DNA of 64,000 bases from Minisyncoccota bacterium (lineage in GTDB: Bacteria > Patescibacteriota > Minisyncoccia > Phycocordibacterales > GWA1-40-21). How positions within the stretch are numbered: position 1 is the stretch's first letter; every line of letters starts with the position of its first letter. Below, piece by piece: positions 2,419 through 42,131 of this stretch. The notes under the pieces were generated by a model. That model searched no databases, was not told where the DNA came from, and saw only the letters and a list, made by a program, of their open reading frames with translations. The position numbers and the translations under genes were made by a program. The stretch is from contig JBAYKL010000001.1 of NCBI GenBank assembly GCA_041664585.1, positions 4,592 to 68,591 of the forward strand. The letters are read 5' to 3'.

Positions 2419-3620
2419 TGAAAATACAAAAGGAAAAATTAATCATAATACTTACGGTTTTAATAGATGTTCTTGGCATGGGGATTGTTATTCCTGTTAT
2501 GCCTTTTTATTTACAAAGCTTTGGTGCGTCACCTCTTACTATTACAATGCTTTTTTCTGTTTTTTCTTTATGTGCATTTTTAAGTTCGCCCATGCTTGGG
2601 GCTTTGTCTGACAAAGTAGGGAGAAGACCAGTTTTGCTAATAAGTATACTAAGTACAGCCATTGGTTGGTTTGTTTTTGCTTCCACAAATGTTTTGTGGA
2701 TTTTGTTTTTAGGAAGAATTATTGATGGGCTTGCTGCCGGTAATATTCCAACCGCTCAAAGTTATTTGTCTGACTTGTCTAAGACAGACAAAGAAAGATC
2801 AGCAAATCTTGGTATGATTGGTGCAATATTTGGTATTGGATTTATTGTTGGCCCAGCCATAGGAGCCGTTCTTGCTACTATTTCCACAGCTTTTCCTTTT
2901 TGGTTTGTTGGCGTGCTCGCGACAATCAATGTAATAGCCGCATATTTCTTTTTACCCGAGAGTCATCATAATAGGAATCATGATTTAAAAATTAGCTTAA
3001 ATCCAGTTCTCCCAATAGCCAGAGCCTTTAAGGACGAAAAACTTAACTCAAGATATTTAGCATGGTTTCTATATGGTATGGGGCTAGCTGCTCAACAAGC
3101 CATCTTTGCTTTATATCTAAATTATCGTTTTGGTTTTACAGCTGCTATTACTGGATATATTATGACAGCCATGGGTGTGGCTTTAGTTGTAAATCAAGGA
3201 TTTTTATTAAAAAACTTTTGGTTGAAGAAATTTAAAGAATCAACAATTGAAGTCTGGTTTTTCCTAGTAGCTGCTATTTCTTTTTTGATTTTGACTGTAC
3301 CAAGTTTTGTAATTTTTTCTATAGGTTTGATTATTATGATTACGACTCAGTCTGTTATTCGTGTAGTTATGTCTAGCAGAGCTGCTGGTATTGCCGGGCA
3401 TCAAAGAAGGGGAGAAGTAATGGGTATAATGTCGTCTGTACTTTCTGCCTCGATGGTTATTGGACCGCTTGTTGCAGGATTACTTTTTCAGACACATAAA
3501 TTGATGCCATTTATTTTTGCAGCGTTTTCTATTTTCTTAGCTTTTGTTGTTATGAAAAGAAGTCATAAAGAACCGGAGGATAAATATGAAGAATTGCCAT
3601 CTGTGCCTGAGGCGTTGTAA
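2418..3620 (+). CDS. MFS transporter
   Basis: 400 aa with about 12 predicted TM segments and the MFS signature G-x-L-S-D-K-V-G-R-R-P-V-L after TM2. It overlaps the upstream stop. Confidence 0.75.
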   Translation: MKIQKEKLIIILTVLIDVLGMGIVIPVMPFYLQSFGASPLTITMLFSVFSLCAFLSSPMLGALSDKVGRRPVLLISILSTAIGWFVFASTNVLWILFLGRIIDGLAAGNIPTAQSYLSDLSKTDKERSANLGMIGAIFGIGFIVGPAIGAVLATISTAFPFWFVGVLATINVIAAYFFLPESHHNRNHDLKISLNPVLPIARAFKDEKLNSRYLAWFLYGMGLAAQQAIFALYLNYRFGFTAAITGYIMTAMGVALVVNQGFLLKNFWLKKFKESTIEVWFFLVAAISFLILTVPSFVIFSIGLIIMITTQSVIRVVMSSRAAGIAGHQRRGEVMGIMSSVLSASMVIGPLVAGLLFQTHKLMPFIFAAFSIFLAFVVMKRSHKEPEDKYEELPSVPEAL

Positions 3621-3628
3621 ATAAAAAA

Positions 3629-3647
3629 CCAGCGAATTACTCGCTGG
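3629..3647. terminator. bidirectional terminator (strongest on minus strand for ndk)
   Basis: Hairpin ccagcgaattactcgctgg. The minus strand reads hairpin plus TTTTTTAT. Confidence 0.7.
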
Positions 3648-3665
3648 CTTTGGTGATCCTTAATC

Positions 3666-4070
3666 TTAGAAAAAGATCGATATTTCTCTCTTAGAAGATT
3701 TTTCGTCAAAAGAAGCGTGGACAGCATTTTCTCTGTTGTTTGTCCCGAACCTCTTTCGTATAGTACCCTCTTCGGCTTGAGCAGGGTTGGTGTTGCCATT
3801 AATTTTTCTTACAACTTGTATGGCATCTTCACCTTCAAGAATGAAAGCTAATGTCATACCTTTTGTCATGAAATTAATTAATGGTTCATAGAAATATTGA
3901 CCCTTATGCTCTTCATACAACTTCTCTGCTTGTTGCAAAGTCATCGGATGAAGTATTTTTCTTTTTACCATTTTTAAGCCGAGACTTTCATATATTTTGA
4001 TGATACGTATCCACGTATTATCATCTCTCCTCATCACGTCGTCTTTAATAAGAACTAAAGTTTGTTGCAC
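3666..4070 (-). CDS. ndk: nucleoside diphosphate kinase
   Basis: 134 aa. The LIKPD-like N-terminus, the NTNPAQAEEGTIR motif and the active-site His region are typical of NDK. Confidence 0.85.
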   Translation of the reverse strand: MQQTLVLIKDDVMRRDDNTWIRIIKIYESLGLKMVKRKILHPMTLQQAEKLYEEHKGQYFYEPLINFMTKGMTLAFILEGEDAIQVVRKINGNTNPAQAEEGTIRKRFGTNNRENAVHASFDEKSSKREISIFF

Positions 4071-4134
4071 TTTGCACCTCCATTTCTGTGAGGGATATTA
4101 CTATTTTTAAATAGAAATGTAAATGTTTTATGCC

Positions 4135-4163
4135 TTGCAAGCTTGCATTATATGATTTATAAT
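4135..4163 (+). promoter_or_regulatory. sigma-70-type promoter (TTGCAA-N17-TATAAT) overlapped by the 12-bp palindrome tgcaagcttgca
   Basis: The -35 box is at 4135-4140 and the -10 box at 4158-4163. The perfect palindrome at 4136-4147 covers the -35 box and the spacer. Confidence 0.55.
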
Positions 4164-4169
4164 CAGTAT

Positions 4170-4229
4170 ATGTTAATGAAAGTTAATTATATTAACAAGA
4201 TTTGGTGGACAGCTCACATAAGTGGGTAG
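4170..4229 (+). CDS. trpL: trp leader peptide (MLMKVNYINKIWWTAHISG) with tandem Trp codons
   Basis: 19-codon ORF starting 7 nt after the -10 box. The tandem TGG TGG codons are at 4203-4208. The stop codon overlaps the GTGGGT antiterminator element. Confidence 0.55.
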   Translation: MLMKVNYINKIWWTAHISG

Positions 4230-4294
4230 TCTTTTGTTGTATTAATTATCTCTAAAATAATAACAAATTATACCCACGAACAGTGGGTTTTTGT
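4222..4294 (+). promoter_or_regulatory. transcription attenuator with alternative antiterminator and terminator hairpins
   Basis: Three elements are present. GTGGGT at 4222-4227 and at 4284-4289, and ACCCAC at 4272-4277. The hairpin acccac-gaaca-gtgggt is followed by TTTTTGTATTTT. The upstream GTGGGT can pair with ACCCAC instead. Confidence 0.5.
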
Positions 4295-4406
4295 ATTTTA
4301 TAAAGTTAATCATGGAAAAGTTTATTTTTAAAAGTCATTGTAATGAGTTTTGGCGACAAAATATTTTTGTCGGTTTTTAGATTATTACTTATTAAATATA
4401 AATTAT

Positions 4407-5609
4407 ATGAAAACAAAAACATTAAAAAATTTACCAAATGAGAATGGATATTATGGAAAATTCGGAGGAAGCTTTATACCTCCACAATTAGTAGAACCGT
4501 TAAAAGAAATAGAGACGGAGTATTTGAGAGCAAAACACGATCCTGTTTTCCAGAGAGAGTATTTAGATTTACTGAAAAATTATGTTGGTAGGCCATCTCC
4601 ATTGTATTTTGCGAAAAATTTAACAGAAAAGTTGGGTGGAGCAAAAATATATCTTAAGCGCGAAGATTTGAATCATACTGGTGCTCATAAAATTAATCAT
4701 TGTATTGGAGAAGTTTTACTTGCAAAAAGAATGGGTAAGAAAAAAGTCCTTGCAGAAACAGGGGCTGGGCAACATGGTGTTGCATTAGCAACGGCCGCTG
4801 CTTTATTGGGGCTTGAGTGCGAAATACACATGGGTTCAATCGATATAAAAAAGGAACACCCTAATGTTATTCGTATGAAATTATTGGGGGCTAAGGTGGT
4901 TGAGGTTAGTACTGGTGGCAGATGTCTTAAGGACGCGGTTGATAGTGCCTTTGCTACGTTTATGAAAGAATACGAAACTACGTTCTTTGCTATCGGGTCT
5001 GTGGTTGGGCCTCATCCATATCCTATGATAGTTAGGGACTTTCAGTCTATTGTTGGTAGGGAAGCTAAGGAACAGATTTTGCTACAAGAAAAAAGATTAC
5101 CAGATTATATAATAGGTTGTGTCGGCGGCGGTTCTAATTCAATAGGACTATTTCATGAATTTCTAGATGATGATGTTAATCTTATCGGTGTAGAACCAGC
5201 TGGAAGAGGATCTGGTATTGGAGAACATGCAGCAACTATTACTTTTGGTACCGAAGGTGTGATTCATGGAATGAAAACAATTGTCTTGCAAAATAAAGAT
5301 GGTGAGCCAGATCCAGTCCACTCTATTGCTTCTGGATTAGATTATCCTGGAGTTGGACCCATTCATGCATATCTAAAGAGTATTGGAAGAGTTGAATACA
5401 CTTCTGCTTCAGATGACGAAACAATCAAAGCCTTCCTGGATTTATCAAAAATCGAAGGAATTATTCCGGCCCTTGAAAGTGCTCATGCAGTAGCATATGC
5501 AATTAAATTAGCCCCGACATTGAGTAAGGATAAAATAATAGTGGTTAATCTTTCTGGTAGAGGGGATAAGGATATCGATTATGTTGCTAAGTTATTAAAA
5601 ATAGAATAA
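4407..5609 (+). CDS. trpB: tryptophan synthase beta chain (TrpB1-type), orphan with no adjacent trpA
   Basis: The HTGAHKINH (PLP lysine) and GAGQHGVA motifs are present, with high similarity to E. coli TrpB. ATG at 4407 is the likely start. The ORF track's 4350 start is a TTG inside a hairpin. Confidence 0.85.
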
Positions 5610-5642
5610 GACTATTATTTAGTAATAAAAATATTATACAAA

Positions 5643-5666
5643 AACAGCCTATTGTGGCTGTTTTTG
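5643..5666 (+). terminator. rho-independent terminator after trpB
   Basis: Hairpin acagcctattgtggctgt followed by TTTTTG. Confidence 0.75.
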
Positions 5667-5776
5667 TATGTTGTAAAATGGTGATGTTACGGGGAATCTA
5701 ACTATATATTCTCAAAGCATTCCTTTTTTAAAATGGTATTTTTTACAGATATAGTGTATAATGGTACATATATATT

Positions 5777-6436
5777 ATGGAAAGCAAGAAAAACCTAAAA
5801 TCAGAACATTTGAAGTTTGCGGTGCTCGCGGTGGATGCCGTTTGTTTTAGAGTGAAAGAAGGCGTTTTAGAACTTCTTTTGGGAAAAATTGGTTCGGACA
5901 ATAATATCTATAAGGGCCAGTGGGCACATATTGGCGGTCTGATATATTCAGAAGAGACGGCAGATCAGTCTGTGGATAGGCTTTTGGGAGACAAGGGGGG
6001 AATAAAAAATATTCACCGGGAGCAACTATATACATTTAGCGATATTGACCGTGATCCGCGCGGGCGCGTGGTCTCTGTGGCTTATATTGCACTTACAAAC
6101 AATGATGATATTCAAAATAAAAATGACGCAGAGTTGGAAACAAAATGGTGTCCGCTGAGTAATTTACCCAAGCTAGCTTATGATCATAATGAGATCACTA
6201 AAGTGGCTGTGGAGAGATTAAGATCAAAAATCATTTATACAGATATAGCCAAATATTTTATGCCAACAGAATTCACATTGTCCGAATTGCAAAAAGTGTA
6301 TGAGGCTGTGCTGGGGGAGGGGATGGACAAGAGAAATTTTCGAAAAAGAATTATTTCCTTAAATTTACTTAAGAATACAAAAAAGACTGTGAAGAAAGGT
6401 GTGATGCGTCCTGCCACTCTGTATACTTTTAAATAA
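5777..6436 (+). CDS. nrtR: NrtR-family transcriptional regulator (degenerate Nudix domain plus C-terminal winged HTH)
   Basis: The N-terminal Nudix fold has a degenerate box (GGLIYSEETADQSVDRLLGDKGG). The C-terminus (FTLSELQKVYEAVLGEGMDKRNFRKRI) matches the NrtR DNA-binding domain. It sits directly upstream of the NAD salvage genes. Confidence 0.75.
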   Translation: MESKKNLKSEHLKFAVLAVDAVCFRVKEGVLELLLGKIGSDNNIYKGQWAHIGGLIYSEETADQSVDRLLGDKGGIKNIHREQLYTFSDIDRDPRGRVVSVAYIALTNNDDIQNKNDAELETKWCPLSNLPKLAYDHNEITKVAVERLRSKIIYTDIAKYFMPTEFTLSELQKVYEAVLGEGMDKRNFRKRIISLNLLKNTKKTVKKGVMRPATLYTFK

Positions 6437-6484
6437 TTTTATATTTCATAGGGTCATTCATTAGCTCTTAATAAGGGGTATATT

Positions 6485-6503
6485 TAGTGTATATTTGACA
6501 CTA
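6485..6503. promoter_or_regulatory. candidate NrtR operator 1 (TAGTGT-N7-ACACTA) overlapping a TTGACA -35 box
   Basis: Perfect half-site palindrome. TTGACA at 6495-6500 lies inside it, and a candidate -10 box TATATA sits about 18 bp downstream. Confidence 0.55.
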
Positions 6504-6526
6504 GTTATAAAAGTGTGGTCTATATA

Positions 6527-6545
6527 TAGTGTAGCATTGACACTA
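6527..6545. promoter_or_regulatory. candidate NrtR operator 2 (TAGTGT-N7-ACACTA) overlapping a second TTGACA -35 box
   Basis: Second perfect copy 42 bp after the first. TTGACA at 6537-6542 lies inside it. Confidence 0.55.
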
Positions 6546-6616
6546 GGTATCGTGTGGGTATATAGTGTATCTAGAACAATATCTAGTTCTTTAACAATAA
6601 AACACGAGGGGGAAAT

Positions 6617-7531
6617 ATGAAAAAGAAAATCGGGATCGTTGTTGGAAGGTTTCAGACGCCGTATCTCCACGAGGGGCACATACACCTTTTGGACACTGCA
6701 CAAACCTTGAGTGAGAGGACTCTAGTAGTCCTCGGAGTAAGTAGTGGGTCGCCGAGTATAAGCAACCCGATGGATTTTGAAACACGGGCAGCGATGCTCA
6801 AGTTTCAGTATCCTGACGTAATGGTTGTTCCTTTGAGGGACATATTCAGTGACAAGGTCTGGTCCGAGCGGCTGGACGCGCTGATTGAGGAGTATAGCGA
6901 TGGTGGCGAGATCACTTTGTTTGGTTCGCGGGATAGCTTCAAAAGTTTCTACAGCGGAAAGTACCCGTTTCAAGAAATCAAAGAGAAGGTTGTCTGTAAT
7001 GCAACCGAAATACGCCGGCAGGAAGCGGATGGTATTCGCAACTCACCAGACTTCAGACGCGGTGTCATGTACGCCGTTACAAAACAAGTGTATCCGATCT
7101 CATATCAAACGGTTGATGTGGTGATCAGACACACTCTGGAGAACAAGGTGATCGTCGGTCGGAAGCTGGGCGAAAGCGCTTGGCGATTTCCGGGAGGGTT
7201 TGTAGATCCGAAGGATCAAAGCCTAGAACTTGCGGCCAAACGAGAGGTGGGGGAAGAAGTCGGCGATGTTGAGATAGACGATGTGAAATACATAGGCTCA
7301 ATACGGGTTGATGATTATCGCTATCGTAAATCGCAACACAAGATTATGACCGCGCTTTTCACGGCTGCATATGTTTGCGGTTCGTTGGAAGCAGGAGATG
7401 ATCTTGAGGAGGTTCGCTGGCAGGACGTTGATGGGCTCATGAGTTGCCTCGTTGAGGTGCATAAACCTCTGGGCGAGGCGTATCTAAAACATATCGGAAA
7501 GTATGAAATAAACAACAGAAAGGAAAGCTAA
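6617..7531 (+). CDS. nadM: bifunctional NMN adenylyltransferase / ADP-ribose pyrophosphatase (NadM-Nudix)
   Basis: N-terminal cytidylyltransferase fold with GRFQTPYLHEGH (HxGH motif). C-terminal Nudix domain (WRFPGGFVDP...KREVGEEVG). SD AGGGGG lies 7 nt upstream. GC-rich. Confidence 0.8.
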   Translation: MKKKIGIVVGRFQTPYLHEGHIHLLDTAQTLSERTLVVLGVSSGSPSISNPMDFETRAAMLKFQYPDVMVVPLRDIFSDKVWSERLDALIEEYSDGGEITLFGSRDSFKSFYSGKYPFQEIKEKVVCNATEIRRQEADGIRNSPDFRRGVMYAVTKQVYPISYQTVDVVIRHTLENKVIVGRKLGESAWRFPGGFVDPKDQSLELAAKREVGEEVGDVEIDDVKYIGSIRVDDYRYRKSQHKIMTALFTAAYVCGSLEAGDDLEEVRWQDVDGLMSCLVEVHKPLGEAYLKHIGKYEINNRKES

Positions 7532-7533
7532 AC

Positions 7534-8919
7534 ATGAACATTCAGTCAAATATTCTTCTAATGACGGACAGCTACAAGGTAAGTCACTACAAGCAGTATC
7601 CAGCCAAGACAAATCGGGTTCTCTCGTTCTTTGAGAGCCGCGGCGGCAGATACGGTGGGGTTCTCTTCTTCGGTCTGCAGTATCTGATCAAGAAGTACCT
7701 CGAGGGCCAGGTGGTTACCGAGGAAAAGATTCAAGAAGCTAAGGAAGTCTTTCAGGCTCACTTTGGCAACCAGAGTCTTTTCAACGAAGCAGGCTGGCGC
7801 CATATTCTTCAAGAGCATGGTGGAAGACTGCCGATCGAGATCAAGGCGGTGCCTGAAGGAACACTGGTTCCGGTGTCGAACGTGCTGGTTACAGTTGTTA
7901 ATACTGATCCAGCAGTGCCGTGGCTTACGAATTACGTGGAGACTTTGCTGGTCCAGTTGTGGTATCCCACGACAGTGGCCACACAGAGCTACTTCATGCG
8001 ACAGACCATTCTGCAATACCTGGAAGAAACGGGAACGCCTGGAGATATAGACTTCAAGCTTCACGATTTCGGGTATCGCGGCAGCACGACGGTGGAGTCT
8101 GCTGGAATTGGTGGGGTGGCTCACCTGGTCAACTTCAAGGGCACAGACACGATTGAGTCACTCGTGGTCGCTAAGCGCTATTATGGCGAGGCGATGGCGG
8201 GTTTCTCGATTCCGGCGGCAGAGCACAGCACGATTACTTCTTGGGGTCGAAACCGCGAGGTAGACGCTTACGAGAATATGCTGACTCAGTATCCGGACGG
8301 GCCGGTGGCGGTGGTGAGCGACAGCTTTAACATCTTCGAGGCATGCGAAAAGCTTTGGGGTGGAAAGCTTCGGCAAAAGGTATTAGCGCGCAACGGCGTG
8401 CTAGTCATCCGGCCAGACAGCGGAGATCCACTTCAGGTTTTGCCCAAGGTGCTTGGCATCCTGGGTGAAAAATTTGGATACACCGTGAACCTGAAAGGGT
8501 ACAAGGTGCTAAGTCCGAAGGTTCGCTTGATTCAGGGTGATGGAATCAATTATGAGAGCGTTGGGGAGATCCTCGAAGCTCTCAAGCAGGCCGGATGGTC
8601 CGCTGATAACATCGCCTTTGGTTCGGGTGGCGGCCTGTTGCAGATGCTCAATCGCGATACGCAGAAGTTTGCTTTCAAGTGCTGCGCTATCGAGATCGAT
8701 GGTGTCTGGTCTGATGTCATGAAAGATCCGGTCACGGATAGTGGTAAACGCTCGAAGGCTGGTCGGCTTGCACTGGTCCTGGACGGCAAAACGTATCAAA
8801 CAGTGAAGGAGGATGAAATAGGAGTGAGAGCTGATCTTCTTATTCCGGTCTTTCGGAACGGGAAGCTCCTCGTGGATCAGAAGTTTGCGGATATCCGCAA
8901 ACGGGCTCTCGTCGGTTAG
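7534..8919 (+). CDS. nadV: nicotinamide phosphoribosyltransferase (NAMPT/NadV)
   Basis: 461 aa. The N-terminus NILLMTDSYKVSHYKQYP and overall length are typical of NAMPT. Strongly GC-rich relative to the window. Confidence 0.85.
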   Translation: MNIQSNILLMTDSYKVSHYKQYPAKTNRVLSFFESRGGRYGGVLFFGLQYLIKKYLEGQVVTEEKIQEAKEVFQAHFGNQSLFNEAGWRHILQEHGGRLPIEIKAVPEGTLVPVSNVLVTVVNTDPAVPWLTNYVETLLVQLWYPTTVATQSYFMRQTILQYLEETGTPGDIDFKLHDFGYRGSTTVESAGIGGVAHLVNFKGTDTIESLVVAKRYYGEAMAGFSIPAAEHSTITSWGRNREVDAYENMLTQYPDGPVAVVSDSFNIFEACEKLWGGKLRQKVLARNGVLVIRPDSGDPLQVLPKVLGILGEKFGYTVNLKGYKVLSPKVRLIQGDGINYESVGEILEALKQAGWSADNIAFGSGGGLLQMLNRDTQKFAFKCCAIEIDGVWSDVMKDPVTDSGKRSKAGRLALVLDGKTYQTVKEDEIGVRADLLIPVFRNGKLLVDQKFADIRKRALVG

Positions 8920-8939
8920 ATGGATGATGAGGGTAGCAA

Positions 8940-8975
8940 CAGGTGTCACGCAAGTGGCACCTGTTTTTTATTTTT
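8940..8975 (+). terminator. rho-independent terminator after nadV
   Basis: 10-bp stem caggtgtcac/gtggcacctg with loop gcaa, followed by TTTTTTATTTTTT. Confidence 0.85.
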
Positions 8976-9077
8976 TAATATTATTTATTAATTTCATAAA
9001 TGGTTAAATATATAAAAGAGTTAAGAACTGCTTATATTTTGTAAAATACAATAATAATGTTATATTAATTTCGCATT

Positions 9078-9149
9078 GGCCCCATCGTCTAACGGTTAGG
9101 ACGAAGCCTTCTCAAGGCTTAAATCGGAGTTCGATTCTCCGTGGGGTCA
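9078..9149 (+). tRNA. tRNA-Glu (anticodon CTC)
   Basis: A manual cloverleaf gives a 7-bp acceptor stem with one G-U pair, a D-arm gtct/ggac, an anticodon stem aagcc/ggctt with loop ttCTCaa, and a T-arm cggag-ttcgatt-ctccg. CCA is not encoded. Confidence 0.8.
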
Positions 9150-9160
9150 CCCGATAAAAA

Positions 9161-9188
9161 TACCAGAGTAATTCCCTGGTATTTTTTT
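9161..9188 (+). terminator. terminator after tRNA-Glu
   Basis: Hairpin taccagagtaattccctggta followed by TTTTTTT. Confidence 0.75.
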
Positions 9189-9242
9189 GTTGTGGGGGCT
9201 ACGGAGAATCGAATTTTACTCCTTGCTAGTATAAATAAAAAA

Positions 9243-9262
9243 GGTTGAGCCGGAGCTCAACC
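9243..9262 (-). terminator. terminator for the minus-strand small gene (overlaps its stop codon)
   Basis: Hairpin ggttgagccggagctcaacc. The minus strand then reads TTTTTT. Confidence 0.65.
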
Positions 9263-9442
9263 CTTAAGGCTTTCCATGAGTTTACGTTCGTTGTTTCTTT
9301 CTTCCTCTATTGCGGTTTCTATGTCTGATACAGTTACTCCGCAGGCGATTGCTGCCTCTGCCTTTGCTTTTTCTAAAGGTAGGCCATTGTCGCGACGAAG
9401 GTGTTTTACTTTCTGAAGTGCATTACAGAGCTTAGTATTCAC
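9257..9442 (-). CDS. small hypothetical protein (61 aa, possible HTH)
   Basis: ORF with an AAAGGA SD. A helical LEKAKAEAAIACGVTVSDIETAI segment resembles an HTH. No family assigned. Confidence 0.4.
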   Translation of the reverse strand: MNTKLCNALQKVKHLRRDNGLPLEKAKAEAAIACGVTVSDIETAIEEERNNERKLMESLKG

Positions 9443-9513
9443 TGTCTAATCCTTTACTGATAAAGTGTGCGAACCTTTTTAGAGATTAATTCAAAGGCTA
9501 TTTTTTGTCAATT

Positions 9514-9538
9514 AAAAAGCCGGACGGGTGTCCGGCTT
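9514..9538 (-). terminator. terminator for the 9537..9920 gene
   Basis: Hairpin aagccggacgggtgtccggctt. The minus strand is followed by a T-run. Confidence 0.7.
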
Positions 9539-9920
9539 AACGTGGTCTGCGGTGTCTTGGACAACCTCCGCCACCAAGTTGACATTGAGCACAGTTTTCT
9601 CTTTCTTCGTCGAGCCTTTTTTCTTCAGGCGTTCTAGTGTCAGAGTAAACTGGACTTTCTTCTGTTTGCGTTTGATTTTTATGACAGGAGAGTTTTATTT
9701 CTTCTTCAGTACCAATCCCTTTTTCGATAAGGGTTTGAATAATGAAGTCCACATTAACTTCTTCGTTCGGGAAGTTTTTTTCTAGGGGTAAAATATTATG
9801 AACTACAATGTGCCAAGCTCTCTGGCTTGCCATCTTCCTTTTTTCTTTACCCTCTATTTTTAAACTCTGAACAAATTTTTCTGTGAGGTCTAAAACTTCT
9901 TGTTTTGTAAGGTTTTCCAT
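9537..9920 (-). CDS. hypothetical protein with Cys-rich C-terminus
   Basis: The start is chosen at MENLT (GGAAAGGA SD). The C-terminus is CAQCQLGGGGCP. No family recognised. Confidence 0.45.
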   Translation of the reverse strand: MENLTKQEVLDLTEKFVQSLKIEGKEKRKMASQRAWHIVVHNILPLEKNFPNEEVNVDFIIQTLIEKGIGTEEEIKLSCHKNQTQTEESPVYSDTRTPEEKRLDEERENCAQCQLGGGGCPRHRRPR

Positions 9921-10005
9921 TACAGACTTCCTTTCCATGGGTTTGAAAGACCAACTAAATTCGAATACAATTATACCCCCATATATTAATTGTGTCAAGT
10001 AATTA

Positions 10006-10044
10006 AAACAGGTCGATTTTATTTAGTAAAATCGACCTGTTTTG
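10006..10044. terminator. bidirectional terminator (long perfect palindrome)
   Basis: aaaacaggtcgatttta...taaaatcgacctgtttt. Confidence 0.75.
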
Positions 10045-10057
10045 TATTGTATATTTT

Positions 10058-10507
10058 CTATTTAAACATCTCTTCCACAGCTTCCTTTACAAGTGCACCG
10101 TCAGCTTTCCCTTTAAGTTCTTTCATTACCATACCGATGAATTGCCCAAGCTTAGATTTATCTATTTCGCCTGCGTTAGCTTTTTTTTCTTCAACTACTT
10201 TCATAACTTCTTCTTTGCTCATCATTTGTGGTAAATATGTTTCGAGAACTCTTAGTTCTTTTTCTTCATCTTCTGCAAGTTCTGGTCTTCCTCCTTTCGT
10301 GAACTGTTCAATGGAATCTTTTCTTTGTTTTACAAGTCTGCGAATTATAGCTAAGGCTTCTTCATCACCAAGAAATTCGTCATTAGTTTTCTTTGCAACG
10401 ATTTCGTTCATAAAGGCTGCCAGTACTCCTCTAAGTACAGTGAGTTTAAAAGCATCTTTGCTAATCATTGCCTGTTTAATTTGTTCCTTTATTGTTGTGT
10501 GTATCAT
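10058..10507 (-). CDS. GatB/YqeY domain protein
   Basis: 149 aa with similarity to the YqeY family (helical, KEL-rich, GatB C-terminal-like). Confidence 0.7.
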   Translation of the reverse strand: MIHTTIKEQIKQAMISKDAFKLTVLRGVLAAFMNEIVAKKTNDEFLGDEEALAIIRRLVKQRKDSIEQFTKGGRPELAEDEEKELRVLETYLPQMMSKEEVMKVVEEKKANAGEIDKSKLGQFIGMVMKELKGKADGALVKEAVEEMFK

Positions 10508-10554
10508 AATGTATAAATATTATCATATTTTTAGAAACTTGGTATAATATTCAT

Positions 10555-11613
10555 ATGTCATCAACAATTATCTTAGGTATTTTGTTAGTAATAGTAACCT
10601 CATTACTTTTGTGGCTTGCTTTGTTCAAAAAGGCAGGAGAAGGTAAAAGAGGAGATGATATTGGTCTAAAGCTTATCCTCGAACAAATAAACGAGCTCAA
10701 TAGAACGGTAGATACTAAAATAGGGGAATCTTCTAAACAAATGCACGAATCTCTTAAACATCAGTCTAGTGAATCTTTTAATATTATTCGTGATATTACA
10801 GAAAAGCTTACAAGACTTGATGAGACAAATAAACAAGTTGTTTCTTTTGCAGATCAGCTTCAATCACTTCAGGATATTTTGAAAAATCCTAAACAAAGAG
10901 GAATTCTTGGAGAATATTATCTTGAAACTCTACTTAAAAATGTTTTACCTACAGGAAGTTATCAAATGCAATTTCCGTTTGCAGACGGCACAATTGTAGA
11001 CGCTGTTGTGTTTGTGAAAGATAAAATTATTCCTATAGACTCAAAATTTTCTCTCGAAAATTATAATCGTTTAGTAGAAGAAAAGAATCCAGCTGAGAAA
11101 GAGAGATTAGAGAAATTATTCAGAGATGATCTTAAAAAGAGAATTGATGAGACCTCAAAATATGTAAAGCCAGGTGAGGGGACTATGGACTTTGCTTTTA
11201 TGTTCATTCCCCACGAAGCAATATATTATGATCTTTTAGTTTCTCAAGTTGGAGCAGTAAAAGTAAATACTAGGGATTTAGTAGAGTATGCATTTAAAGA
11301 AAAGCATGTAATTATTGTCTCCCCAACTTCTTTTTTGGCATATCTACAAACCGTTCTTCAGGGGCTTAAGGCTATGCAAATAGAAGAATCAGCCAAGGAT
11401 ATTAAAAAGAATGTTGAGAATCTACAAAAACATCTGAGAAGCTATCAGGAATATCAAGAGAAGCTTGGTAATGCCCTCTCTACTACAGTAAGCCATTTTA
11501 ATAATTCAAATAAAGAATTTAAGAAGATAGATAAGGACGTGGTGAAGATTACGGGGATAGAGTCTGAGCTTGAAGTGCTAGAAATCGCAAAGCCAGAGAG
11601 GGAAGATGAGTAG
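10555..11613 (+). CDS. rmuC: DNA recombination protein RmuC
   Basis: N-terminal TM segment, a long coiled coil, and a C-terminal RmuC nuclease-like region. Confidence 0.7.
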   Translation: MSSTIILGILLVIVTSLLLWLALFKKAGEGKRGDDIGLKLILEQINELNRTVDTKIGESSKQMHESLKHQSSESFNIIRDITEKLTRLDETNKQVVSFADQLQSLQDILKNPKQRGILGEYYLETLLKNVLPTGSYQMQFPFADGTIVDAVVFVKDKIIPIDSKFSLENYNRLVEEKNPAEKERLEKLFRDDLKKRIDETSKYVKPGEGTMDFAFMFIPHEAIYYDLLVSQVGAVKVNTRDLVEYAFKEKHVIIVSPTSFLAYLQTVLQGLKAMQIEESAKDIKKNVENLQKHLRSYQEYQEKLGNALSTTVSHFNNSNKEFKKIDKDVVKITGIESELEVLEIAKPEREDE

Positions 11614-21592: not shown

Positions 21593-24500
21593 ATGAAAAA
21601 AGCCGCAAACATTTTGATAGACGGAGTTACAGGGGGAAAGCTTGAAAAGAAATATTTCAGCAAGTTCAAAGAACCTCTAATAAAGACTCCAAACCTTGTC
21701 TGCCACCAAATGAAATCATACGAATGGTTTCTTAAAGATGGTCTCGCAGAAGTCTTCAAGGAGTTTTCTCCTATAAAAGACTATGCTGATAAGAAATTCG
21801 AATTGTCTTTCACTGACTTCGAAGTCTTGGCTCCTAAGAATGATGAAAATAGTGCAAAGGAGAAAAAGATTTCTTATGATGCTCAGCTTAAAGCAAAAGT
21901 TAAACTAAAGAACAAAACTCTTGGAACTGTAAAAGAACAGGAAGTATTCCTTTCTGATTTACCTTTGATGACAGATCACGGTACTTTTATTATAAACGGT
22001 ATTGAAAGAGTCATCGTTCCTCAGCTTGCTCGTTCATATGGTGTATTCTTTACTCTTAATGATGCAAAAGGTAAAAACTTCTTTGGTGCAAAGATTATTC
22101 CAGCAAGGGGTGCTTGGATAGAAGTAGAATCAGAATCTGACGGTGCTATATATGTCAAAATCGACAAGAAAAGAAAATTTGCGGTTTCTTCTCTTTTAAG
22201 AGTTTTGGATATAAAGACAGATAAAGACATTTTAGATCTATTTAAGAGTGATGAAGTTACTACAAAAGTAATGGAACTTACTCTTGCGAAAGACCATGCA
22301 AAAACTCAAGATGATTCTTTCCTAGAAATCTACAAGAAACTTAGAGATGGAGATTTGGCTTCTATAGAAAATGCCAAAGAATTTATAAAATCTATTTTCT
22401 CAAAAGAAAGATACGATATTTCAGGAGTTGGAAGATTTAAATTCAACAAGAGATTTAACTTATCAATGGATGAAAAGGTTTTAGAAAACAAAACTATTAC
22501 AGCAGAAGATGTTGTTTGTATAATCAAAAACATTGTTGCATTAAACAATGATCCAGAAGCTGTAGAAGATGATATCGATCACTTGGGCTCAAGAAGAGTT
22601 CGTTTCGTTGGTGAACTTATACAAGCTAAGGTAAGAGTTGGTATGGCTCAAATGAAGAGAAACGTTCAAGACAGAATGTCTACAATAGATCCAGATATTA
22701 CAACTCCAGTACAATTCATTTCTGCAAGACCGCTACAAGCTAGAATAAAAGAATTTTTCACAACCAACCAGTTGTCTCAGTTTATGCAACAGACAAACAT
22801 TCTTGAAGAAATTGAACACTTGAGAACTTTGTCAGCTCTCGGACCTGGAGGTCTTACAAGAGAAAGAGCTGGATTTGAAGTTAGAGACGTTCACCCTTCT
22901 CACTATGGAAGAGTTTGTCCTATTCACACACCAGAAGGTCAAAACATCGGTCTTATCTTAAGACTTTCAAACTACGCTAGGGTAAATGAATTTGGAATGA
23001 TCGAAACTCCTTATGCAAAAGTTGTAAAAGGTGTTGTTACAGCTGAAGTAAAATATTTCAATGCTTTAGAAGAAGAAGGTTTTAAGGTTGCTCACGGTGC
23101 TACTCACTATGATGAAAGCGGAAAGATTACTGATAAAGAAGTTGAGGTCCGTGTAAACGGTGTACCAACTCTTGTAAAAAGAGAAGACGTAGATCTTATA
23201 GACGTATCTGCAAACCAAGCTTTCTCTATAGCTCCATCTATGATTCCTTTCTTAAATCACGACGATGCAAACAGAGCTTTGATGGGATCAAACATGCAAA
23301 AGCAGGCTGTGCCTTGTATTATTCCAGAAGCTCCACTTGTTGCTACTGGTATTGAAGGAGAAGCTGCAAGATATACAGGAAGAGTTATATTTGCTGAAGA
23401 AGAGGGTATTGTTTCAAAAGTAGATTCATCAAAAATTGTTATTAAAGGTGCAAAGACTGGTAAAGATAAAGAATATAAACTTGTTGCATATTCAAGAACA
23501 AACGGTTTTACTCCTTTCCACCAGAGACCATCTGTAAATCTAGGACAGAAAGTTAAGAAGGGTGATTTACTTGCCGATACATCCTCATCTGTAAATGGTG
23601 AAATGGCTATTGGTCAAAACGCTCTTGTTGCTTTCATGACTTGGAGCGGTGCAAACTATGAAGACGCTATTGTCCTTTCAGAAAGACTCGTAAAAAATAG
23701 CAAATTCTCATCAATTCACATCGAAGAATTTATCGTAAACGTTCGTGATACAAAACTTGGACCAGAGGTTACAACACATGATATTCCAAACGTCGGTGAA
23801 GCTAAATTAAAGAACTTAGACGAAGACGGTATTGTAAGAGTTGGAGCGGAAGTTATGACAGGAGATATTCTTGTTGGTAAAATTACTCCAAAAGGTGAGA
23901 CTCAACTTACACCAGAAGAAAGACTTCTTAGATCTATTTTCGGTGAAAAGGCTCGTGATGTAAAAGATACTTCAAAGAGACTTGAAAGTGGAAAGAGAGG
24001 AAGAATTATTTCTGTAAAGGTTTTCTCAAGAGAAAATGGAGACAAGCTCGAATCAGGAATTATAAAGAGAATTCACATTGAAATTGCCCAACTTAGAAAC
24101 GTATCTGTTGGAGACAAACTTGCTGGAAGACACGGAAACAAAGGTGTTATTTCAAGAATATTACCAGTAGAAGATATGCCTTATATGGAAGATGGTACAC
24201 CGGTAGATATTATTCTTACACCACTTGGTGTTCCTTCACGTATGAACCTTGGACAGATTCTTGAGGTCCACTTGGGTATGGCTGCAAATACTTTGAACTA
24301 TCAGGCTGTTGTTCCACCATTTATGGGTGCTACAGACAAAGAGATAAAAGAAGAGCTCGTAAAAGCCGGATTCAATTCAGACGGTAAGATGAAATTGTTT
24401 GATGGAAGAAACGGACAAGCTTTTGAACAAAATATTTCTGTGGGTTATATGTATATCTTGAAGCTGCACCATGAAGTTGAAGACAAGATACACATGAGAT

Positions 24501-40469: not shown

Positions 40470-42131
40470 ATGAAGAAAAGAGCCCATAAGTATATCTTTG
40501 TAATCGGAGGTGTTATGTCAGGAGTCGGTAAAGGTATCACTACTTCGTCTATTGGGGCCCTTCTTCAAGCAAAAGGTTTTGGTGTAAATCTATTAAAAGT
40601 TGATCCATATTTAAATGTAGACGCGGGAACAATGAATCCTACTGAACACGGAGAAGTTTTTGTATTAAATTCTGGACTTGAGACAGATCAAGATATGGGA
40701 AATTATGAAAGATTTTTAAATCGCGATCTTACAGGAGACGACTATATTACTTCTGGTATGGTTTACAAACATGTTATAGAAGCAGAAAGAGCCCTTAAGT
40801 ACGGTGGTCATTGTGTTGAAGCTATTCCACATATAAGAGATGAAATAATTCATAGATTTGAAAAGTCAGCGAAAGTAAATAAATCAGATATTACGGTTGT
40901 AGAAATCGGTGGAACAATTGGCGACTATCAAAACATTATGTTTATAGAAGCTGCTCGTGTAATGAAGGTAAGGTATCCAAATGATGTTGCTTTTGTGATG
41001 GTCAGCTTTATGCCTATACCTCATACTCTTGGTGAGATGAAATCCAAGCCAACTCAAAATGCTTTGAGACAACTTAATTCATACGGAGTAAATGCAGATA
41101 TTATCATCGCAAGAAGCGAAACTCCTATGGATCACAAGAGAAAAGAAAAGATTGCTGTATCTTGTAGTTTACCAGTAGAAAATATTATATCTGCACCGGA
41201 CATAGAAAGTGTTTTTGACGTTCCAATAAATTTTGAGAAGGATAATATAAGCAAAATACTTTTGAAGCTTCTACACTTGAGAGAAAAGAAAAATACACCA
41301 GGTATAGGAGAATGGATTAAGTTTGCTAATAGTGTAAAGAATACAAAAGATACAGTAGACATAGCCATTGTCGGAAAGTATTTCAATACCGGAGACTTTG
41401 TTCTTACAGATGCATATGTTTCTGTGCTTGAAGCTATAAAATACTCTGCATATAAGCTAGGTAGAAAAGCAAAAATACATACTGTAAATTCTAGAGACTT
41501 TGAGAAGGCTGATTTGAAGGCTTCTGATTTTAAAACATTAGACAAATATGATGGAATCATTGTCCCTGGAGGTTTTGGAGAATCTGGGATAGAAGGGAAG
41601 CTTGCTGTTATAAAATATGCTAGAGAAAAAAAGATTCCTTATTTTGGACTTTGTTATGGTATGCAACTTATGGTCATAGAATATGCAAGAAATGTTCTTG
41701 GACTTAAAGATGCAAACACCGCTGAAATAAATATAAATTCAAATTCTCTTGTTATAGACATAATGCCTGATCAAAAGAAAAAGCTTGAAGAATTAAATTA
41801 TGGTGGAAGTATGAGGCTCGGTTCATATAACGCGCATATTGAAAAAGGTACAGTAGCTTATGAAGCTTACAAACAAGAAATAGTTCAAGAAAGACATAGA
41901 CATAGATATGAAGTAAATCCTGAATTTATAAAAAAGATTACAGATGCGGGACTAGTATTTTCTGGTAAATCTCCAAATGGTGTTCTTATGGAAATAGCAG
42001 AATTACCTAAAAAGGTTCACCCGTTTTTCTTGGGTACACAATTCCATCCAGAATTTTTGGCTAGACCACTTGCTCCACATCCACTTTTTACGGAGTTTAT
42101 AAGGGAGGCGATAAAGAGAAGGAATAAATAG
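40470..42131 (+). CDS. pyrG: CTP synthase
   Basis: 553 aa with an N-terminal synthetase domain and a GATase domain containing GLCYGMQ. Confidence 0.95.
   Translation: MKKRAHKYIFVIGGVMSGVGKGITTSSIGALLQAKGFGVNLLKVDPYLNVDAGTMNPTEHGEVFVLNSGLETDQDMGNYERFLNRDLTGDDYITSGMVYKHVIEAERALKYGGHCVEAIPHIRDEIIHRFEKSAKVNKSDITVVEIGGTIGDYQNIMFIEAARVMKVRYPNDVAFVMVSFMPIPHTLGEMKSKPTQNALRQLNSYGVNADIIIARSETPMDHKRKEKIAVSCSLPVENIISAPDIESVFDVPINFEKDNISKILLKLLHLREKKNTPGIGEWIKFANSVKNTKDTVDIAIVGKYFNTGDFVLTDAYVSVLEAIKYSAYKLGRKAKIHTVNSRDFEKADLKASDFKTLDKYDGIIVPGGFGESGIEGKLAVIKYAREKKIPYFGLCYGMQLMVIEYARNVLGLKDANTAEININSNSLVIDIMPDQKKKLEELNYGGSMRLGSYNAHIEKGTVAYEAYKQEIVQERHRHRYEVNPEFIKKITDAGLVFSGKSPNGVLMEIAELPKKVHPFFLGTQFHPEFLARPLAPHPLFTEFIREAIKRRNK

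Follow-up and report, generated by a model that had tools for sequence, protein, structure and literature searches.

The DNA studied here is a 64,000-nt stretch (the window) of contig JBAYKL010000001.1 from a Minisyncoccota bacterium (GenBank assembly GCA_041664585.1, positions 4,592 to 68,591), and the positions below are counted from its first letter. The genes nrtR, encoding a Nudix-related transcriptional regulator, and nadM-nadV, encoding enzymes of nicotinamide salvage, are separated in it by a 180-bp spacer, where palindromes of the type TAGTGT-N7-ACACTA are interwoven with promoter-like hexamers. Are these palindromes the operators of the adjacent regulator and, if so, how would they control the synthesis of NAD? 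The analysis indicates three sites, designated O1, O2 and O3, which are very probably binding sites for NrtR, placed so that the bound protein would repress nadM-nadV by promoter occlusion and would probably be released by ADP-ribose. The initial annotation had proposed NrtR operators that act by occlusion on the nadM promoter, and this proposal is now strongly supported by the identities of the genes, the published motif rule, the comparison with relatives and with 93 nrtR loci, and the residues that recognise DNA.

Palindromes of the nrtR–nadM spacer

Sequence reading and a pattern search confirmed the two perfect palindromes described earlier, O1 and O2, which lie 42 bp apart from start to start (four helical turns) and contain the hexamer TTGACA at 6495–6500 and 6537–6542, respectively. 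The sequence at 6563–6568, previously regarded as a lone TAGTGT half-site, is the left arm of a full third site with one mismatch, O3; the two sites of the supposed operator pair both stand as operators, but the pair is a triplet, the third member of which covers both the -10 box and the place where transcription is likely to start. All three sites are contained in the spacer and fit the pattern TAGTGT-N7-ACA(C/A)TA, in agreement with the published definition of NrtR sites as palindromes of about 21 bp with a GT-N7-AC core, which overlap promoters (PMC2330246).

Chance abundance of the motif had been named as a possible objection, and it was checked in the window, the G+C content of which is 35%. 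The exact sequence TAGTGT-N7-ACACTA is present in two copies, with 0.007 expected from base composition. The window contains 47 perfect 6-N7-6 palindromes, and only three half-site sequences recur among them, including TAGTGT. A mismatch-tolerant pattern search found, besides O1–O3, a single match with two mismatches at 41330, within a long open reading frame (ORF). A position matrix was built from the sites found in nrtR loci, and its profile shows that the symmetry runs on into flanking A/T (TATA...TATA); in a scan of the 64 kb with this matrix, O1–O3 were the sole sites above the level of shuffled sequences (mean shuffle maximum 10.4 bits). The next-best sites, at 22039 (11.5 bits) and 41330 (10.7 bits), are located inside long ORFs and score at shuffle level, and they were rejected as further members of the regulon in the window.

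The conservation of the sites was assessed in 11 distinct relatives, whose NrtR proteins are 63–75% identical to that of the window; a scan of the genome collection with the single NrtR protein had given six loci, and further loci were fetched from the collected NrtR homologues, with the closest homologue, P0002 (82% identical), standing outside the DNA comparison. The gene order nrtR, sites, nadM, nadV is found in 10 of the 11 relatives, the exception being L089, where nadV comes first. O2 (TAGTGT-N4-TTGACACTA) and O3 (TATAGTGT-N7-ACAaTA) are present in all 11, at a distance of 34–36 bp from each other, and O1 is present in seven, 41–42 bp upstream of O2. In alignment A2, the columns of the half-sites and of the hexamers are invariant, while the 7-nt spacers, the flanks and the DNA between the sites vary, as would be expected for sites bound by a protein. 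O3 is the most conserved feature. Eight of the relatives have ACAATA as its right arm and a further two have ACAGTA, so that a single one shows the consensus ACACTA; the departure from the consensus in 10 of 11 suggests selection either to weaken the binding or to preserve the first transcribed bases.

A family-wide set of 93 non-redundant nrtR loci (471 kb, G+C 29–70%) was searched for sites with one mismatch at most. It contained 101 sites, compared to 1.0 expected from shuffles, and 86 of them lay in the interval from -200 to +400 bp around nrtR, corresponding to 1.5 sites per kb near the gene versus 0.036 per kb elsewhere. The motif is kept among the relatives carrying the regulator and is rare elsewhere, as an operator should be. 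In distant loci, the genes past the sites include nadA, a gene for a NadB-like flavoprotein, pnuC and a Nudix gene.

The same repeats might have arisen simply by tandem duplication of promoter DNA, TTGACA and TATA elements included, and the palindromes might have no role in protein binding or might be bound by another factor. Indeed, O1 and O2 share a direct repeat of 30 nt with 83% identity, which extends beyond the palindrome (family D2), and both arms overlap promoter-like hexamers, so promoter function could explain part of the conservation. Yet positions outside the hexamers (GTGT of the left arm and CTA of the right arm) are invariant in the relatives, and the same palindrome adjoins nrtR in 52 of the 93 loci, which come from very diverse, unrelated bacteria with different G+C contents and differing neighbouring genes and have no promoter context in common. 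Duplication or an unrelated binding factor is, hence, a very improbable source of these sequences. A simple tandem-repeat array was rejected, as Tandem Repeats Finder reported none; the direct repeat of O1 and O2 is real, but it leaves the conservation in unrelated genomes unexplained.

Several of the loci differ from the window in what follows the operator. In several distant nrtR loci (40–50% identity), TAGTGT-N7-ACACTA is followed by a gene for a PP2C_2-family protein phosphatase instead of an NAD enzyme gene; Pfam matches to PP2C_2 were obtained in L013 (1216–2082), L016 (4384–5310) and L033 (1032–1895), and the gene of L017 (1202–2062) was assigned by similar sequence. To our knowledge, a link between an NrtR-type regulator and a PP2C gene has not been described. 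ORFs of approximately 380–400 aa stand directly past the operator in L035 (4217–5431), L051 (4225–5430) and L056 (1285–2421); those of L035 and L056 were scanned against Pfam and gave no match, and an ORF of similar size in L085 is NadA. In L089 (3667–6666), the operon is rearranged, with nadV first, followed by separate Nudix and cytidylyltransferase-like genes, and there are two operators only, both near-perfect, plus a perfect site before nrtR of the autoregulatory type.

Table 1. Features of the nrtR–nadM–nadV locus in window coordinates
Feature	Position	Strand	Evidence and remarks
Operator O1, distal	6485–6503	.	TAGTGTATATTTGACACTA; perfect TAGTGT-N7-ACACTA palindrome; matrix score 23.3 bits
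Operator O2	6527–6545	.	TAGTGTAGCATTGACACTA; perfect palindrome; -35 box in right arm; 20.7 bits
Operator O3, proximal	6563–6581	.	TAGTGTATCTAGAACAATA; one mismatch (TAGTGT-N7-ACAATA); overlaps -10 box and predicted start; 19.4 bits
-35 hexamer TTGACA of P2, predicted main nadM promoter	6537–6542	+	Promoter scan; invariant in relatives
-10 hexamer TATAGT of P2	6561–6566	+	Promoter scan; overlaps O3 left arm (TATAGTGT)
Possible upstream promoter P1	6495–6526	+	TTGACA 6495–6500 in O1, 20 nt, TATATA 6521–6526 beside O2
Shine-Dalgarno sequence GAGGGGG of nadM	6606–6612	+	Sequence reading; aligned AAGGAG-type block in relatives
Degenerate operator-like copy overlapping the -10 box of nrtR	5752–5770	.	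TAGTGT-ATAATGG-TACATA; four mismatches, all in right arm
nrtR, Nudix-related transcriptional regulator, 219 aa	5777–6436	+	Pfam NrtR_WHD 3.8e-23, NUDIX 5.2e-08
nadM-Nudix, NMN adenylyltransferase and Nudix hydrolase fusion	6617–7531	+	Pfam CTP_transf_like 2.7e-06, NUDIX 2.5e-14
nadV, nicotinamide phosphoribosyltransferase	7534–8919	+	Pfam NAMPT_N 3e-41, NAPRTase 5.3e-57
Intrinsic terminator ending nadM-nadV	8938–8965	+	Terminator scan; 12-bp stem, then TTTTATTTTT

Predicted promoters under the operators and the site before nrtR

The best promoter of the region in the promoter scan, P2, has the composition TTGACA-18-TATAGT and matches the consensus at 11 of the 12 hexamer positions; an alternative -10 hexamer, TATATA at 6559–6564, gives a spacer of 16 nt. 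Near-consensus hexamers and a spacer of 16–18 nt are those of a sigma-70-type promoter, the prediction being made by consensus only, and the spacer between TTGACA of O2 and TATAGT measures 16–18 nt in all 11 relatives. O2 lies over the -35 box and O3 over the -10 box of this predicted promoter, a placement appropriate to operators, and transcription of nadM would start at approximately 6571–6575, in the spacer of O3. The dimer of AraR of Bacteroides thetaiotaomicron (BtAraR), a solved homologue of NrtR, covers 25 bp in a crystal with DNA (PMC4666351); if this value is valid here, the -35 and -10 hexamers and the start would all be hidden under dimers on O2 and O3.

The position of the predicted start also bears on the possibility that the palindromes act as RNA hairpins, that is, as a terminator, an attenuator or a riboswitch-like leader. 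A hairpin of 6 bp could be formed by any of them, and a small terminator-like hairpin is present just past nrtR in relatives. However, with the start of P2 inside O3, neither O1 nor O2 would be transcribed from this promoter, and the region 6437–6616 folds no better than shuffled sequences (z = -0.94, with 34 of 200 shuffles at least as good). No Rfam match was found in the region, and the 7-nt loops vary freely while the stems are invariant and lack compensatory changes, as is typical of sites bound by proteins. The RNA element was rejected on the fold score and on the Rfam search, where the only match of the window was a tRNA, and a role of this kind appears extremely unlikely.

Some side features of the spacer can be mentioned. 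A motif yTTTAACA (6590–6596) in the 5′ untranslated region of nadM is conserved in most relatives (alignment A2), and a possible 5′-terminal hairpin, AGAAC (6573–6577) with GTTCT (6586–6590), is identical in L002 and L096 and is not consistently kept elsewhere. Between the stop codon of nrtR and the first operator, a clear small intrinsic terminator is present in L001, L002, L087, L089, L095 and L096, and in L001 its loop contains the conserved TTGACA. The hairpin found after nrtR in the window (CUCUU-AAUA-AGGGG, 6464–6479) is weak, and some read-through from nrtR to nadM is therefore conceivable.

Tandem promoters had been suggested for the spacer, with a TATATA-like -10 box 16–18 bp past each TTGACA. 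This holds for the second TTGACA, where the spacer is 16 or 18 nt, but not for the first, where it is 20 nt to TATATA or 24 nt to TATAGT. Accordingly, the downstream promoter has a canonical form, which all 11 relatives share, whereas the upstream one, P1, was absent from the output of the promoter scan, and its spacer lies outside the 16–18 nt of a sigma-70-type promoter. Nevertheless, TTGACA is found 30–32 bp 5′ of O2 in 10 of the 11 relatives, including three that do not have the O1 palindrome (L096, L001 and L002), and the spacer to a TATATA-like hexamer is always 18–20 nt. With TTGACA retained at such a spacing, P1 may be a second promoter upstream of P2, weak or non-canonical.

The degenerate copy of the operator at 5752–5770, overlapping the -10 box of nrtR itself (TATAAT, 5757–5762), is present as originally described, but the autoregulation proposed to act through it is unsupported in this genome. 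The sequence scores -3.7 bits, which is below chance, in comparison with 19–23 bits for O1–O3, and it was rejected as an operator of the window genome. Perfect sites at the equivalent position exist only in relatives, 22 bp (L002) and 25 bp (L089) before ATG; L095 and L096 have symmetrical sites with two mismatches there, and in all four of these relatives the -10 box of nrtR is inside the site spacer. L001 has the same decayed sequence as the window (TTGTGTATAATGGCCATAC). We take 5752–5770 to be what is left of an autoregulatory operator present in an ancestor, and autoregulation in the window genome is doubtful and probably weak. As a separate observation, L002, L089 and L096 share with the window a common geometry upstream of nrtR, where the -10 box lies inside the operator spacer, 22–25 bp before ATG. 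In the window, TATAAT ends 14 nt before ATG (5777), and a Shine-Dalgarno sequence is lacking, so the nrtR mRNA is probably leaderless or nearly so.

The regulator, its predicted DNA contacts and its probable effector

Pfam searches confirmed the identities initially assigned to nrtR and to nadM, the latter as a nadM-Nudix fusion. The regulator has the domain composition of the NrtR family, with an N-terminal Nudix-like domain (NUDIX, 33.4 bits, cutoff 21.1) and a C-terminal winged helix (NrtR_WHD, 81.9 bits, cutoff 27), and it aligns over its full length to the structures 5bs6 and 3gz5; its location 180 bp upstream of nadM-nadV is also typical of the family. A Candidatus Paceibacterota metagenome-assembled genome encodes a protein with 100% identity to it. 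The translation shows a degenerate Nudix box, G-x5-E-x7-RLLGDK instead of REUxEE, which does not contain the catalytic glutamates; the nadM-Nudix product retains an intact catalytic motif, REVGEEVG.

The closest solved structures are BtAraR (5bs6, 1.6e-40) and then NrtR of Shewanella oneidensis (3gz5, 5.4e-26). In the crystal of BtAraR with DNA of the sequence AAGTGT-N7-ACACCC, four residues of the recognition helix (Lys179, Arg180, Asn181 and Lys184) and one of the wing (Arg205) read the bases GTGT (PMC4666351). Alignment mapping found identical base-reading residues in the window NrtR (K185, R186, N187, K190 and R211), the sole difference in the mapped DNA contacts being Met210 in place of Lys204 of BtAraR, and the helix sequence DKRNFRK is invariant in 43 homologues. 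With identical base-reading residues, the predicted specificity of the window NrtR fits the GTGT-N7-ACAC core beside its own gene. That the palindrome matches the DNA of the BtAraR crystal, in which the recognition helix is identical, is a further argument against the repeats being a simple duplication of promoter DNA.

The same structural comparison was used to predict the effector. The ADP-ribose contacts of Shewanella NrtR are Tyr10, Phe15, Arg41, Asn43, Lys76 and Arg98, as given in PMC4666351, and in BtAraR Phe36, Leu67 and Gly89 replace Asn43, Lys76 and Arg98 and fill the nucleotide pocket (PMC4666351). Pairwise alignment indicated that three of the five mappable contacts are conserved in the window NrtR, namely N42, K73 and R95 at the phosphate-contact positions N43, K76 and R98; K73 and R95 are invariant in the clade. 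Arg92 and His137, which contact ribose, are also conserved, and the arabinose contact of BtAraR, Arg34, corresponds to Ile38. ADP-ribose or a close nucleotide-ribose relative is, thus, the likely effector. Arabinose, raised as a candidate since BtAraR is the best match in PDB, was rejected, given the lack of Arg34 and the presence of the nucleotide-phosphate residues.

Several points weigh against NrtR operators with release by ADP-ribose. Concerning the DNA, the matrix scores are somewhat circular, because the sites of the matrix were picked by likeness to the pattern; the scan for sites in the host genome covered the 64-kb window; and the distance between O2 and O3 in the window is 36 bp, or 3.4 turns, so not all dimers would be on one face of the helix. 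Concerning the effector, R41 of Shewanella NrtR aligns with S40 (in a loop with an indel) and F15 with L12, the window NrtR as a whole resembles BtAraR, an arabinose sensor, more closely than it does the ADP-ribose-binding Shewanella protein, and Corynebacterium glutamicum NdnR responds to NAD and not to ADP-ribose (PMC4666351). The one serious open alternative is a different effector, with the operators and the repressor as described above: NAD as a co-repressor, in the manner of NdnR, or another nucleotide or a sugar. The effectors known in the family include ADP-ribose, NAD and L-arabinose (PMC4666351), the closest solved homologue senses arabinose, and two of the five mappable contacts are unconserved. 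On the other hand, the phosphate contacts lost in BtAraR are present here, K73 and R95 being invariant, the arabinose-binding Arg34 is replaced by Ile, and the operon salvages the other product of NAD cleavage and contains a Nudix-NadM fusion, as does that of Synechocystis, for which the effector is proven to be ADP-ribose. An effector of another kind consequently seems unlikely.

ADP-ribose remains the preferred effector, and from the sequence comparisons we infer the actual binding of NrtR, the repression, the transcription start and the role of ADP-ribose. Dimers of NrtR would sit on O1, O2 and O3 over the sigma-70-type promoter of nadM-nadV, and, with the -35 box in the right arm of O2, the -10 box overlapping the left arm of O3 and the start in the rest of O3, the bound protein would exclude RNA polymerase; the third dimer, on O1, may serve cooperative binding or cover a weak upstream promoter. 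Cleavage of NAD gives nicotinamide and ADP-ribose, and ADP-ribose lifts NrtR repression (PMC2330246). When NAD is consumed, ADP-ribose would build up and occupy the Nudix-like domain of NrtR, lowering its affinity for DNA, and nadM-nadV would be transcribed once NrtR is off. NadV and the adenylyltransferase half of NadM would then rebuild NAD from nicotinamide, and the Nudix half of NadM would destroy ADP-ribose and reset the switch.

A more far-reaching, and rather doubtful, suggestion is that Paceibacterota and related bacteria of the candidate phyla radiation (CPR), whose regulators are very few, conserve a fixed module of three operators with half-sites fused to promoter hexamers (TTGACA/CTA and TA/TAGTGT), giving a graded, cooperative ADP-ribose switch. 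In such a module, three dimers would shut two overlapping promoters, P1 (19–20-nt spacer) and P2; the proximal site would be kept sub-consensus deliberately (ACAATA in 8 of 11 and ACAGTA in 2 of 11); and the switch would act on the only route to NAD in host-dependent cells. If true, this would be among the first experimentally tractable sets of transcription factor, operator and ligand for CPR bacteria.

The organisation of the locus is compact. The nadV gene begins 2 nt past the nadM stop codon, which places both genes in the same operon, and the intrinsic terminator after nadV, together with a hairpin at 5636–5669 between a trpB-like gene and nrtR, delimits nrtR and nadM-nadV as two short transcription units. 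The trpB-like gene (tryptophan synthase beta; PALP family, 4350–5609) stands alone upstream of nrtR, and no trpA was evident among the ORFs listed for 3000–11000. Just past the nadV terminator, at 9077–9152, there is a gene for tRNA-Glu(CUC), the sole tRNA or Rfam match in the window.

Comparison with known systems

Transcriptional regulation is almost unstudied in CPR bacteria, and no link of NrtR, nadM or nadV with Patescibacteria was found in the literature searched. The locus offers a precise prediction of a regulon in a CPR bacterium, with the regulator, three operators, the promoter and the probable ligand, and it suggests that reduced cells adjust nicotinamide salvage to the consumption of NAD, a point that bears on the dependence of such cells on their hosts for cofactors. 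As both the operator and the recognition helix match a solved complex, reconstitution in vitro or use as an ADP-ribose-responsive part would be possible. For specialists in NAD regulation, the case is unsurprising and repeats that of nadM-nadV in Synechocystis.

NrtR of Synechocystis sp. PCC 6803 (Slr1690) binds upstream of its nadM-nadV and is released by ADP-ribose (Rodionov et al. 2008, PMC2330246), and the Nudix domain of Synechocystis NadM is an ADP-ribose pyrophosphatase (PMC2330246). The window shares with it the family of the regulator, the target operon, composed of a nadM-Nudix fusion and nadV, and a palindromic GT-N7-AC operator in the promoter region; the sites were compared at the level of the described operator core. 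The host here, unlike Synechocystis, is an uncultivated Paceibacterota (CPR) bacterium, and nrtR immediately precedes nadM-nadV, a single promoter of which has three sites; in the tabulated Synechocystis regulon, nrtR lies beside nadE, and nadA and nadE are additional targets.

For Shewanella oneidensis NrtR (SO1979; PDB codes 3GZ5, 3GZ6 and 3GZ8), binding to both tandem prs-nadV sites was reported, with two shifted complexes and ADP-ribose as the effector (PMC2330246). Multiple sites on one NAD-salvage promoter are common to both systems, and N43, K76 and R98 are kept as N42, K73 and R95, but the target is prs-nadV there and nadM-nadV here, and the recognition helix reads QGKSFRRR there and DKRNFRKR here. 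The latter difference agrees with the published variation of NrtR DNA motifs and DNA-contacting residues between lineages (PMC4666351).

BtAraR (BT0354; PDB codes 5BS6, 5DD4, 5DDG and 5DEQ) has the same base-reading residues and the same GTGT-N7-ACAC core, and tandem operators in one promoter also occur in AraR systems, 42 nt apart in some species. It differs from the window NrtR in sensing L-arabinose and controlling genes of sugar utilisation; its nucleotide pocket is filled (F36, L67, G89), where the window protein has N, K and R, and its R34 is Ile here.

NrtR of Mycobacterium smegmatis (MSMEG_3198) is an auto-repressor of nrtR and a repressor of nadABC, released by ADP-ribose, with a 7-nt-spacer palindrome between nrtR and the NAD genes (PMC6800001). 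The window, too, has a Nudix-related regulator, for which release by ADP-ribose is predicted, and palindromes whose arms are 7 nt apart in the DNA separating nrtR from the NAD genes. The mycobacterial motif is different (GTTTTCGA-N7-TCGAAAAC), and the mycobacterial regulator controls de novo synthesis and not salvage as here; autoregulation, in turn, is doubtful in the window, where the site upstream of nrtR has decayed. In general, the system follows the NrtR design of Rodionov et al. 2008 and is a clean but ordinary example of it; what is new is the host lineage and the three-site architecture with half-sites fused to promoter hexamers.

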